The translations under genes were made by a program, and so were the position numbers. From a virus, in the IMG/VR virus record IMGVR_UViG_3300028840_003906: 64,000 nt of DNA; one strand, 5' to 3'. The notes below the pieces were generated by a model. That model saw nothing but the letters and a program-made list of their open reading frames with translations. It did not search any database and was not told where the DNA came from. Positions 12,418-19,286 of the stretch are shown here, one piece after another. Position 1 is the first letter of the stretch; the number at the start of each line of letters is the position of its first letter.

Positions 12418-12419
12418 AT

Positions 12420-12492
12420 GGGTTGGTAGCTCAATTGGTAGAGCATCGCGTTACCTATAGGGCGTATGCTGGTTCGAATCCGGCCCTGTCCA
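12420..12492 (+). tRNA. degenerate tRNA (unpaired anticodon arm)
   Basis: D arm GCTC-AATTGGTA-GAGC and T arm GCTGG-TTCGAAT-CCGGC intact; acceptor weak; anticodon stem TCGCG/TAGGG does not pair. Confidence 0.55.
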
Positions 12493-12502
12493 TTGGAGGT
12501 AG

Positions 12503-15456: not shown

Positions 15457-15616
15457 CGCCGAGAACTGATGAGATACTTCAGCAAAGCCATACGAGGCCG
15501 AAGTTCCAGGTTCGATTCCTGGGTTCCCCACTCCTCGATATTCGAGGGTTCATTTGGGGAACTAGCCCAATGGTAGGGCGCGGAATGCAAAGCGTATCTA
15601 ATGAATTCTCTCGGCG
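15457..15616 (+). ncRNA. Y-RNA-like RNA with circularly permuted tRNA domain
   Basis: Outer stem CGCCGAGA/TCTCGGCG and AGATAC/GTATCT enclose T arm plus 3' acceptor GTTCCCCA (15506-30), placed before 5' acceptor plus D arm GGGGAAC-TA-GCCC-AATGGTA-GGGC (15556-79). Confidence 0.7.
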
Positions 15617-15643
15617 TTTTTCTTCTTTTTGCTCATTGAAAAT

Positions 15644-16006
15644 GGGTCCGACACGGTTTCGACTTGCATGAACGAAGTGTGTAGTGCAGGCTCCGGATGG
15701 TCTATCCGGATCAAAAATTGACCGAACAAGTAATTGTCGAAAATTACGAACCAATGCAGGCGGCTGCTTAAACCACCCCTGCCGTCAGACTGGCCGAGCT
15801 TCTCATAGGCCCGATCCTGGCGTCATCAATGAGGATCGCCCTGCGCGGGCAACCCTAAGCGCACGGGTTAAAAAAATGGGTTGCGAAACCTCCGCTGCTC
15901 AGTCTGGTTGCAAACGGGTGGCGGTTGAAATTATGACCGGGCTAAGCCTGTGAATGATCTGCTCATGGAGCATGTGAGGACCCGAGTTCGACTCTCGGCG
16001 GATCCA
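15644..16006 (+). ncRNA. ssrA: tmRNA
   Basis: GGGTCCG/CGGATCC acceptor with G3-U70, 5' ACGGTTTCGAC, T arm CCGAG-TTCGACT-CTCGG, tag frame 15736-15771 = VENYEPMQAAA-stop after GTAATT. Confidence 0.93.
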
Positions 16007-16129
16007 CTTTCGGCTTCGGAACAGTGCCGTAAACTGTTGCCCTGGTGGAGGTGCCGGGAGGCGCCCCGGGCCAAGTAAACTTGCTACAGTTGATCCATGC
16101 GGACGCTGGCAGATTGAAAGGCCCATTTT

Positions 16130-16163
16130 AGCGGGATAGAGAAATGGTAACTCACGGGTCTCA
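16130..16163 (+). pseudogene. orphan 5' half of a tRNA-Met
   Basis: AGCGGGA-TA-GAG-AAATGGTAA-CTC-A-CGGGT-CTCA, stops inside the anticodon; AGCGGGA is complementary to TCCCGCT at 16867-73. Confidence 0.7.
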
Positions 16164-16815
16164 GCCTGGGAGCGTTATGGATGGAAGATCAAAGGGTGGA
16201 GTTGAGAATGGAAAAAGGCTGAGGTCCCGTGCGGTTGCCAGGTATTACGAGGATCCCAATGTTTGTGAGAATTGTGGTTCTGTCATCAGGGTTGGAGATG
16301 GTGACAGGGTTTACGATGTGAGGAAGAAGCGTTTTTGCAACAGAAGTTGTGCCGCCTCGTTCAATAACCGGAAGCATCCAAAGAGATTAGCTCGGGAGAC
16401 TTGTGTGTGCGAGGATTGCGGTGATGTTGTTGTCCTGAAGCCGCAGCGTGGTGGAGGATACGTCCAGAGGCGGTTTTGTGACACGTGTGCGAAGGCTAGG
16501 AGGATAGGAGGGAAGCCTATTGGTCTACGCACAAAGGGGGAGGTTTTCTCTGGGTCAAAGAACTGGATATCGGCACGTTCCAGCATAAGGAAGGATGCTT
16601 GGCGAGTGTTTGAGGGTTCAGGGGCCGAGAGGGTGTGTGAGGTGTGCGGGTATAGTTTGCATGTGGATGTGTGTCACATCAAACCGGTTTCGGATTTTGG
16701 GGATTCGGCTCTCGTGAGCGAAGTCAATGATATCTTAAATCTCATTGCTTTGTGTCCCAACCATCACTGGGAATACGACAATGGGCATCTTGATTTGATG
16801 CGGGACAGACAGTAA
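16144..16815 (+). CDS. HNH homing endonuclease inserted in a tRNA-Met locus
   Basis: CENCG...FCNRSC Zn motifs; CEVCGY..HVDVCHIKPV...NLIALCPNHHWEYD HNH core; start may be ATG 16177. Confidence 0.88.
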   Translation: MVTHGSQPGSVMDGRSKGGVENGKRLRSRAVARYYEDPNVCENCGSVIRVGDGDRVYDVRKKRFCNRSCAASFNNRKHPKRLARETCVCEDCGDVVVLKPQRGGGYVQRRFCDTCAKARRIGGKPIGLRTKGEVFSGSKNWISARSSIRKDAWRVFEGSGAERVCEVCGYSLHVDVCHIKPVSDFGDSALVSEVNDILNLIALCPNHHWEYDNGHLDLMRDRQ

Positions 16816-16874
16816 TGGTGCTGTGACGGTCTCATAAGCCGTAATCAGTGTCGGTTCGAATCCGGCTCCCGCTA
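16799..16874 (+). tRNA. tRNA-Met (CAT)
   Basis: GCGGGA/TCCCGC acceptor (1:72 T-T), D stem ACAG/CTGT, ACGGT-CTCATAA-GCCGT, GTCGG-TTCGAAT-CCGGC; 5' end overlaps last HNH codons. Confidence 0.8.
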
Positions 16875-16902
16875 CTAAAGTGATAGACAGAGTGGTCCTG
16901 TT

Positions 16903-17118
16903 TTGATGGAAAGGATGGTGGGGACGATGCCAAATGGGGATTTCTTGAATCCGCGTTACCGCGATGGGAATGAGTACCTGACGAACAGGCAGCTCAAGAA
17001 GAAGTACGGATATGTCCCTCGCATCAACTCTGACGACTATGATTGCGAGAAGGACTATCTTGGTGAGCTTGAGGATGCGCGGGAGCATGGTTACGAGGAT
17101 GATGAGCGTTATCCGTAA
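16903..17118 (+). CDS. small acidic hypothetical protein
   Basis: 71-aa ORF between RNA genes. Confidence 0.5.
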   Translation: MMERMVGTMPNGDFLNPRYRDGNEYLTNRQLKKKYGYVPRINSDDYDCEKDYLGELEDAREHGYEDDERYP

Positions 17119-17135: not shown

Positions 17136-17138
17136 TTT

Positions 17139-17284
17139 GAGCGAGTGGCGGAATGGATACGCCGGGATCGCAGACCAAGAGTGATGGGTCAACGGCTGTT
17201 GGAAGACTCTGACTCGTTATGGTAGGACCTGGTGACCAGGTTCGGATTCTCAGCAGCGTGCATGTTCGAGTCATGTCTCGCTCA
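17139..17284 (+). ncRNA. tRNA-shell RNA with ~75-nt structured insert at the anticodon
   Basis: GAGCGAG/CTCGCTC-A acceptor, GCG-GAATGGATA-CGC D arm, GCATG-TTCGAGT-CATGT T arm; 146 nt. Confidence 0.7.
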
Positions 17285-17321
17285 TTTTTGGATCTTTGAA
17301 AATCGAAGTTTTGTTGATCGT

Positions 17322-17437
17322 GTCCCAGTAGTGCCAATTGGTAGAACGCTGTACGTAAGAATCGGCCGCGCCGTGGGAAACCTAGTGGTCGTAAGCTGCA
17401 TACGCAGAGGTTGCAGGTTCGAGTCCTGCCTGGGGTA
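17322..17437 (+). ncRNA. tRNA-shell RNA with anticodon-loop insert
   Basis: CCCAG/CTGGG acceptor core, AATTGGTA D loop, GCAGG-TTCGAGT-CCTGC T arm; insert helix CGGCCGC/GTGGTCG; 116 nt. Confidence 0.7.
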
Positions 17438-17656
17438 CAAGGTGCGGAATGGTCTTTGTGGCGACGAAGTGCACCTTTATAAAAAGTCATGAGGAACACA
17501 AGGACATCCCGGAAAGACGGGGCGAAGCCTGATTAGCGTGACCATGCCGCGCCAGGCGGGGAAAGGTATGGGGGCCTTTACTGACTTCACCCAAAATGGA
17601 AACTGACCACCGGACGAGAGATCGTGCTTGGGTGGATCCAGGAGAGAGACCTGGGG

Positions 17657-17781
17657 ACCATAGAGGCGGAAATGGTATACGCTATCCGTCTTCCGGTTGG
17701 GCGGAGAGGGTGAGTGCTAGATGGAGCAACTTTAAATGGAAGTACCGACAGCCCGTGCAGGTTCGAGTCCTGCCTGTGGTT
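17657..17781 (+). ncRNA. tRNA-shell RNA with enlarged variable region
   Basis: ACCATAG/CTGTGGT acceptor, GCG..CGC D arm, TCCGTC/GGCGGA stem with non-canonical loop, ~50-nt variable region, GCAGG-TTCGAGT-CCTGC. Confidence 0.65.
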
Positions 17782-17790
17782 CTGATTTTT

Positions 17791-18022
17791 ACGCGGGTAG
17801 CCAAATGGTAAAGGCGGCCGTGCAGGAAAACCCCGACGGGGGGATACGAAAACCTCGGACCAGTGGTCAGTTGAATTCGGCATGGTGTCACGAGCGCTTG
17901 CGAATGGGGGAGCAGGAAAAGCCGACGGGCGTAATACGAGGAGTCAGTGGGGCGCGCGTAGCTGATAACTCTGAGGCTCTCTTGATCGAATGTCGTTGGG
18001 GGTTCGAATCCCTCCCTGCGTG
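17791..18022 (+). ncRNA. tRNA-shell RNA with ~160-nt insert containing a duplicated motif
   Basis: ACGCGGG/CCTGCGT-G acceptor, GCC-AAATGGTAAA-GGC D arm, GGGGG-TTCGAAT-CCCTC T arm; 232 nt. Confidence 0.7.
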
Positions 18023-18042
18023 CTATTTGAAGGAGGATGTTG

Positions 18043-18702: not shown

Positions 18703-19004
18703 TGCTATGGTTCAAGAACAGGTTGGAGCCAGATCCTTCTGAAACCAGGGTGGTTCCGAGGCCGGAGGTGGGCACGGTCTATGTGAATAGGGACAATGAG
18801 GACCTTTTCGCGCGTGTTGTTGAGATTTTCGGTGATCTGGTTATGTACAACGTCTTCTCGTCGGATCGGAGGTGGAAGTGTGGAAGACGCAAGGTGCGGG
18901 CTGTGTTCCATTTTGCCGAGAGGTATGATACGGAGCGACCATTGTACAATGGTGATGAAATTGTACTTTTCATCAGGAAAAAGGATCAGGAGTTTGTAGA
19001 TTAA
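18702..19004 (+). CDS. hypothetical protein
   Basis: TGATG coupling to upstream gene. Confidence 0.55.
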   Translation: MLWFKNRLEPDPSETRVVPRPEVGTVYVNRDNEDLFARVVEIFGDLVMYNVFSSDRRWKCGRRKVRAVFHFAERYDTERPLYNGDEIVLFIRKKDQEFVD

Positions 19005-19101
19005 AGCGTCACCGTGGAGGGGCGCACCGAAACATGAACTCAAGGCCGTGTGAAGGTGTGTCGGCAGGATATCCTGCTGGGTTCGATTCCCAGACGCTTT
19101 T
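19003..19101 (+). ncRNA. tRNA-shell RNA lacking a D arm, with one extended central arm
   Basis: AAAGCGT/ACGCTTT acceptor, CTGGG-TTCGATT-CCCAG T arm, CAGG-ATAT-CCTG variable arm, central GCGCACC-GAA-ACATG/CGTGT-GAA-GGTGTGT. Confidence 0.6.
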
Positions 19102-19103
19102 CA

Positions 19104-19222
19104 GGGCGAGTAGCTCAGAGGGAGAGCAGGGTGCGTAGGGCAGTGTTGGGTTCGACTCCCATTCAGGAAGGTCCCCGTAAGTCCGCAACGCCCGGTCCCA
19201 GGTTCGAGTCCTGGTTCGCTCA
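19104..19222 (+). ncRNA. tRNA-shell RNA with a second T-loop hairpin nested in the anticodon loop
   Basis: GGGCGAG/TTCGCTC-A, GCTC-AGAGGGA-GAGC, GGGTG/CGCCC, CCAGG-TTCGAGT-CCTGG; nested TGGG-TTCGACT-CCCA 19147-61. Confidence 0.7.
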
Positions 19223-19286
19223 CAGAGAGAGATGCACAGCGGACGTGATCCGCTGGGGGTTTTGGTGAACACGGCATCTCTCCTTT

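Follow-up and report, generated by a model that had tools for sequence, protein, structure and literature searches.

The window analyzed here is a 64-kb part of a 124.7-kb virus record in IMG/VR, a record estimated to be ~68% complete. On its plus strand, a phage tmRNA gene is followed by a 120-nt spacer, the 5' half of a tRNA gene, a 13-nt leader, an HNH open reading frame, and a complete tRNA-Met(CAU) gene, in that order (Table 1). We refer to the 5' half as the stub and to the complete tRNA-Met as Met*. A preliminary description of this DNA had reported the stub, the HNH reading frame, and the complete tRNA-Met, and we found all three in place. As had also been described, the complete tRNA-Met, called by ARAGORN, is kept directly behind the HNH gene. 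The two genes overlap: the last five HNH codons and the stop codon are inside the tRNA-Met gene. Between the tmRNA and the tRNA-Met, no site resembled a promoter or a terminator.

Table 1. Features of the tmRNA and tRNA-Met locus, numbered from the first base of the window.
Feature	Coordinates	Strand	Evidence
Phage tmRNA gene	15644..16009	+	ARAGORN; Rfam RF00023, 117 bits
Orphan tRNA-Met 5' half (stub, X-type)	16130..16163	+	Sequence; BLAST against intact tRNA-Met; pattern scan
Leader, 13 nt, with Shine-Dalgarno GGGAG	16164..16176	+	Sequence
HNH gene, putative homing endonuclease, 212 aa	16177..16815	+	ORF; Pfam HNH_2; gene calls
Cys-rich N-terminal region, two CxxC...CxxC zinc-ribbon-like units	16264..16500	+	Weak domain matches
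HNH_2 nuclease domain (...CPNHHWEYDNG...)	16636..16791	+	Pfam PF13391, residues 165-216 of the 223-aa frame
Complete tRNA-Met(CAU), Met* type	16799..16874	+	ARAGORN (to 16875); Rfam, 24.7 bits

All further copies of the locus that we found were 100% identical to the window, and no second genome had the stub-HNH-Met* layout. Four DNA sequencing runs contained no contig joining across the HNH gene; they yielded only fragments of the same phage and unrelated tRNA look-alikes. Exact-pattern scans of IMG/VR for the stub, the 3' part of the tRNA, and the Met* D arm gave zero matches, as did an exact-pattern scan of one metagenome set. The window had no blastn match among GenBank phages. A LexA-like neighbor of the locus had no phage relatives in IMG/VR or in a set of 5.8 billion proteins.

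The HNH reading frame is open from 16144 to 16815 and matched the Pfam family HNH_2 (PF13391) with an E-value of 3.8e-9 (36.7 bits, compared to a cut-off of 21 bits). In a genome-wide search, the HNH_2 match scored 39.4 bits. Gene calls of both 212 and 223 amino acids are present for this frame. Translation more likely starts at the ATG at 16177 than at the in-frame ATG at 16144, which is inside the stub, as judged from the Shine-Dalgarno sequence GGGAG just upstream, the 212-aa gene call, and the N termini of homologues, which align there. The motif CPNHHWEYDN was invariant across the HNH relatives. The N-terminal half of the protein is rich in cysteines, with weak matches to zf-FCS and L24e-type zinc ribbons, and presumably binds DNA. 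Among solved structures (PDB) there were weak matches only, to an FCS zinc finger and to the HNH nuclease TagI. The gene is associated with neither an intron nor an intein: it is a separate reading frame, and no intron or ribozyme model in Rfam matched. It is best read as a free-standing (intron-less) homing endonuclease gene, which agrees with the first account of the locus.

We found that the stub is a genuine tRNA-Met 5' half, and that it belongs to a type of tRNA-Met other than the downstream tRNA. In its 34 nt it has an acceptor strand (AGCGGGA), U8-A9, a canonical D arm (GAG..CTC with GG), a single A, the anticodon-stem strand CGGGT, and a 3' end at CTCA (C34, A35), within the anticodon. 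When intact tRNA-Met genes from unrelated phage contigs (L042 and L043) were compared by BLAST to the whole 64-kb window, the stub matched at 24 of 25 positions for L042/L044 (E = 8e-7) and 22 of 23 for L043 (E = 1e-5). The D arm of the stub is identical to that of the intact genes in L042-L044. A structural pattern, defined as a D arm preceded by a strand able to pair 7/7 with TCCCGCT and followed by CTCA, was found once in the window, compared to 0.05 expected in shuffled sequences. The intact relatives of the stub, which we call X-type, have a 5-nt variable loop.

Little else of an X-type gene is visible. No X-type 3' half remains downstream of the stub in the window, and the left junction, between the stub and the HNH gene, had no recognizable homology or target duplication. 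A D-arm-like repeat just 3' of the tRNA (16883-16903) was unsupported by a repeat finder. A blastn-short search for orphan halves was insensitive, as it missed the window's own stub.

The 3' end of the stub coincides exactly with the site at which HNH relatives are inserted in the tRNA-Met genes of other phages. We surveyed 38 IMG/VR loci with HNH relatives, almost all of them in tRNA arrays of large phages; the family as a whole has 3,410 cluster representatives at E<=0.001. By our own tally, the HNH gene is within or immediately next to a tRNA(CAU) gene at ~20 of ~25 distinct loci. Within tRNA-Met, the insertion site of the family is CA/UAA (the slash marks the insertion point), between A35 and U36, and it is used in both orientations. 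The claim that the stub had been cut at the anticodon thus stands, on the match to intact tRNA-Met genes and on the position of its end.

Sense insertions at CTCA/TAA were found in five loci (L011, L036, L039, L029, and L009). With introns allowed, ARAGORN called a tRNA-Met with an anticodon-loop insert of 739-751 nt in L011, L036, and L039, and also called a mutated form of it in L029. In L008 and L009/L010 the split tRNA-Met has decayed. In the sense-inserted loci, the 5' exon ends at CTCA and is followed by a conserved leader of ~100 nt and then by an ORF that runs to the 3' junction. The stop codon of the ORF is U36-A37-A38 of the anticodon loop in L011, L029, L009, and L039; in L036 it is 9 nt earlier. 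The genes that split tRNA-Met at CA/UAA in L011 (2479-3303), L036 (2559-3372), L039 (1288-2101), and L029 (2491-3309) are HTH-HNH genes. The ~100-nt leader of these four loci has three covarying hairpins (e.g., CGGT..GCCG in place of CAGT..ACTG), the third of which covers the start codon.

Antisense insertions were also found. In L047 (1430-2239), a minus-strand tRNA-Met is interrupted at the same CTCA/TAA site. In L152 (1-1069), the antisense insertion is in the tRNA-Met anticodon loop with a less exact junction (5' side CTC..., 3' side ...TA), displaced from the site by no more than a base or two. Insertion at the same site in the antisense orientation speaks for a target at the level of DNA rather than an orientation-dependent intron.

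In other loci the HNH gene is next to a complete tRNA-Met. It abuts the 5' end of the tRNA gene in L003, L007, L031, L033, L034, and L063, and directly follows the tRNA gene in L002, L004, L005, the L012 group, and L048. These layouts were interspersed in a tree of the HNH proteins, and the tree was poorly resolved. A mismatch at 1:72 is common in the tRNA-Met genes next to members of the family. In L006 (2858-3740), and also in L035, an HNH gene and a long-armed tRNA(GCU) gene are flanked by the strand GGCAGAC on one side and by a T arm with the acceptor strand GTCTGCT on the other. GGCAGAC pairs with GTCTGCT at 7/7 positions, which gives the appearance of a unit of tRNA and nuclease set within another tRNA gene.

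Group I introns with homing endonuclease genes occur in anticodon loops of bacterial tRNA genes, including cyanobacterial tRNA-fMet (I-Ssp6803I) and Azoarcus tRNA-Ile(CAU). The bacterial tRNA(CAU) introns use site 36/37, one base from the HNH insertion point. The window is like these systems in its CAU-anticodon target and in an insertion within a base of the intron site. One explanation of the locus along these lines would be that the stub and the downstream 3' half are exons of one tRNA, and that the 672-nt insert is removed by an unrecognized ribozyme or by protein splicing and ligation. Besides the position of the insertion, the tRNA halves around related HNH genes in other phages, which are still complementary, are in keeping with splicing.

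We consider splicing extremely unlikely, and the window itself offers nothing to favor it. Rfam models detected no group I or group II intron or small ribozyme at E<=5 between 11500 and 23000 of the window, and covariance models detected none in six related loci. As proposed in the preliminary description, the ORF fills the insert and leaves no room for a ribozyme core; only 13 nt of the insert are non-coding. A canonical group I intron is excluded, since the related inserts end in A/T runs and have no G before the 3' junction. The same site is also occupied in the antisense orientation. The tRNA halves around the insert in the window do not form one tRNA: the anticodon-stem strand of the stub (CGGGT) pairs at only 3 of 5 positions with GCCGT of Met*, and a complete tRNA is in the way on the 3' side. 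A search of the 124-kb record, estimated at 68% completeness, gave neither RtcB nor Thg1. In contrast to the group I introns, no ribozyme core was detected, the inserts of relatives have no terminal G, the insert is filled by the ORF, insertions are also antisense, and splicing is not needed in the window.

The complete tRNA-Met has an unusual build. It has a T1:T72 mismatch, a 3-nt linker (CAG, where two nucleotides are usual) before the D stem (ACAG/CTGT), a 7-nt variable loop, and a discriminator A at 16874. We scanned a metagenome for the pattern of its anticodon arm and obtained 80 loci, two of which (L063 and L078) had a tRNA of the Met* type. Rfam tRNA scores were 24.7 bits for the window, 24.5 for L078, and 36.8 for L063, compared to a cut-off of 29 bits. 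Positions 8-48 are identical in the three copies, save that L063 differs at one D-loop position (A/T). The 7-nt variable loop is present in 3/3 copies, and position 1 is unpaired with U72 in 3/3. Among these three sequences, there are compensatory changes in the T stem at 49:65 (G-C, G-C, and T-A) and 51:63 (C-G, A-T, and A-T), and the acceptor pair 7:66 covaries (A-T, G-C, and G-T). These comparisons indicate that Met* is a single conserved type and that selection maintains it as a tRNA.

In the window, L063, and L078 alike, a tmRNA gene is the conserved upstream neighbor of the locus. In L063, Met* is behind the tmRNA gene and is abutted by an HNH gene, the product of which is the closest known homologue of the window HNH protein (53% identity); the two are sisters in the tree (support 86/91). 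The HNH/Met* junction, where the last HNH codons meet base 1 of the tRNA, is common to the window and L063 (on the reverse strand of the latter) and differs in position by 7 nt. The L063 ORF ends on the TAA of the anticodon loop and the window ORF on the TAA of the D loop. L078 is a collinear relative of the window phage, with 50-68% protein identity, in which Met* is 170 nt behind the tmRNA gene with neither an HNH gene nor a stub. Thus, at one site, between tmRNA and Met*, an HNH gene is present in the window and L063 and absent from L078.

A search of the L078 spacer with a profile of the family detected no HNH remnant. A DVGKKRF patch (E = 0.34) that might have marked this spacer as a decayed HNH gene was scored no better than shuffled sequences by the profile. 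Candidate remnants of the stub in the spacers of L063 and L078 were not significant (p = 0.63 and 0.42, respectively), and a MAFFT alignment of these spacers was judged unreliable.

The preliminary description had proposed that the mobile unit was the HNH gene plus a replacement 5' half only, which became joined to the 3' half of the resident tRNA. We think this is very unlikely. Both halves of the downstream tRNA are of one conserved type, found also in L063 and L078, rather than a cassette-borne 5' half on a resident 3' half. In its variable loop of 7 nt and its GCCGT stem strand, the 3' half is like the Met* genes of L063 and L078; X-type variable loops are 5 nt. The anticodon-stem strand of the stub matches this 3' half poorly (3/5, above). 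The proposal had looked to relatives for an uninterrupted allele and would have been refuted by its absence. An HNH-less allele does exist, in L078, but it carries the very tRNA that was supposed to have been rebuilt, complete and without any HNH gene.

The proposal had also drawn on acceptor-stem pairing. The observation itself was correct: the acceptor strand of the stub pairs 7/7 with the downstream 3' strand, and that of Met* itself pairs 6/7 (T1:T72). As an argument for a graft, it fails, because the acceptor sequences are shared (GCGGGR) and the 1:72 mismatch is conserved in all three Met* copies and is no scar of a graft. In addition, the acceptor 3' strand of Met* in L078 is the same as in the window (TCCCGCT). 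One further point is in favor of a graft. The 5' strand of the T stem in the window, GTCGG, is that of the X-type gene in L042, and a crossover 3' of the variable loop is possible. From the sequences compared, a graft is contradicted for positions 1-48 and would survive only for positions 49-76.

In the reading that we think probable, if only just, the HNH gene moves together with Met* as one unit, and an X-type tRNA-Met gene was cut at CA/UAA, with replacement of all that lay rightwards of the cut. The HNH family would target the anticodon loop of phage tRNA-Met DNA and insert between A35 and U36. In the window, the HNH gene is joined head-to-tail to Met*, and the pair would travel together, with Met* as the linked, presumably cleavage-resistant, allele of the target. 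The stub would be what remains of a second, ordinary X-type tRNA-Met that was cut at CA/UAA, the nuclease gene and Met* having replaced the X-type gene rightwards of the cut. In this way the phage would keep a tRNA-Met without splicing. Resistance of Met* is an assumption, since Met* carries the same anticodon loop (CTCATAA) as the X-type gene that was cut.

We favor movement as a unit because the HNH/Met* junction is shared with L063, whose HNH protein is the closest homologue, and because no X-type 3' half is left. The stub is near-perfect, although the two HNH proteins have diverged by 47%, which fits recent homing with the stub as the recipient's own 5' half. L078, however, may be explained equally well or better by a resident Met* and a newcomer HNH gene, with or without the stub.

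Met* might indeed have been resident and never replaced. The HNH gene would then have first been inside an X-type tRNA-Met, either a tandem neighbor of Met* in an ancestor or a gene in another phage. It would have come to abut Met* later, by deletion of the X-type 3' half or by an illegitimate move that dragged the 5' exon along. The stub would be a hitch-hiker or a leftover and no evidence of restoration. We consider this possible but somewhat unlikely. It accounts for L078, where Met* is in the same tmRNA-linked position with no HNH remnant and no stub. Some phages (L042-L044) also have two or three tRNA(CAU) genes in direct succession with zero spacer, and in the split-tRNA relatives the ORF ends at the 3' border of the element, such that loss of the 3' half would fuse the ORF to the next gene. 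On the other hand, the exact HNH/Met* junction would have to arise twice, in the window and in L063, or be old. In the latter case the stub, if neutral, would be expected to show decay by now, and it does not. Moreover, neither the L078 spacer nor the L063 spacer has a trace of an X-type gene.

Expression of the nuclease may be linked to the RNA genes. The HNH gene has no promoter of its own and is therefore probably read from an RNA-gene transcript that also carries the tmRNA. Several homologues have an extended -10 sequence just before their ATG. Processing of the tRNA 5' end by RNase P would cut the HNH message before its stop codon, since in both the window and L063 the stop codon is inside the tRNA. 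The phage tmRNA gene is ~500 nt upstream. A more elaborate version of the unit is conceivable, which we regard as unlikely. In this version the odd build of Met* (the extra base before the D stem and the 7-nt variable loop) would be the immunity determinant of a self-sufficient HNH-Met* unit that colonizes RNA genes with no intron, and would protect the carrier genome against its own nuclease. Every round of homing would turn the fresh 5' half of the recipient gene into a stub, and RNase P would make a non-stop HNH mRNA that is a substrate for the adjacent tmRNA. If true, a non-stop HNH message and the tmRNA would tie nuclease dosage to tRNA maturation.

Several other RNA genes and motifs are in the same part of the window. 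Just upstream of the tmRNA gene, at 15498-15587, there is a weak match to YrlA, a Y RNA-like RNA (33 bits, compared to a cut-off of 69), with a permuted tRNA-like module. Downstream of Met* is a row of tRNA-like genes, called by ARAGORN with introns allowed, at 17138-17285, 17322-17438, 17657-17782, 17791-18023, 19002-19101, and 19104-19223. They have good acceptor, D, and T arms, with structured inserts of 25-139 nt in place of the anticodon arm. L078 does not have this block. A motif around (T)CTTTGAAAA recurs at 15626-15643 and 17286-17303, just before the tmRNA gene and just after RNA genes, and is found next to RNA genes in L078 as well. Within the RNA-gene cluster, it may serve as a spacer or as a signal for processing. 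At 12419-12493 there is a tRNA with an enlarged anticodon loop, to which ARAGORN assigned the four-base anticodon CCTA. It contains CTA and could be an amber suppressor. There are also tRNA(CUA) genes in the related HNH loci L009, L010, L031, and L039, which hints at recoding of stop codons in these phages.

Free-standing homing endonucleases have been described among tRNA genes before. In the cited accounts, SegB of phages T4 and T6, a GIY-YIG enzyme, is a free-standing homing endonuclease in a phage tRNA cluster that cuts within tRNA genes and promotes inheritance of itself and of flanking tRNA genes (PMC2330249, as cited in PMC8421152; PMC13096335). The association of SegB with tRNA genes is statistically strong (PMC13096335). 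In cyanobacteria, the HNH gene all8564 is linked to tRNA L-arrays (PMC8421152). The window is like SegB and all8564 in having an intron-less nuclease gene among tRNA genes. It differs in the nuclease family (HNH_2, with a zinc-ribbon N terminus), in a stop codon inside the fused tRNA, and in a broken copy of the target, cut in the anticodon, as a flank. We found no published case of such a tRNA stub beside a nuclease gene, and no paper on a phage tRNA-Met gene that contains, or is fused to, an HNH gene.

Two systems in protein genes are also comparable. Mitochondrial mobile endonuclease ORFs (mORFs) bring with them a foreign copy of the gene end that they displace, as described for atp6 of Allomyces macrogynus (Paquin et al. 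1994, as cited in PMC3630166) and for atp6, atp9, cox2, and nad3 of Glomus (PMC3630166). As in the window, an endonuclease gene invades another gene with no intron involved, and a divergent replacement takes over from the native part, which stays behind unused. In contrast, mORFs are in protein genes, replace the 3' end, and yield a true hybrid, whereas the window has an RNA gene of which a 5' part is left over and for which a whole tRNA of a different type stands in. We compared the window to such a hybrid: a native-like stub is present, and the tRNA gene in use has Met* sequence from position 1 to at least position 48, with an acceptor 3' strand as in the HNH-free L078; a hybrid 3' of the variable loop is possible. 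The second system is the 'fractured genes' with split inteins, which are genes split by insertion of a free-standing endonuclease gene (PMC2677866). Here too, a gene is split at the DNA level by a homing endonuclease gene and is rescued by means other than an intron. In fractured genes the rescue is by protein trans-splicing or subunit assembly, whereas in the window a complete second copy of the gene provides it.

The usual view is that homing endonucleases persist in essential genes by hiding in self-splicing introns or inteins. The locus described here and its relatives suggest another route for RNA genes, in which a tRNA gene is broken and a divergent intact copy, joined to the nuclease gene, is kept. 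If the linked tRNA is a resistant allele, such units would drive the turnover of tRNA genes and their exchange between phages. This would also explain odd tRNAs and tRNA fragments of phages that annotation pipelines miss or miscall.
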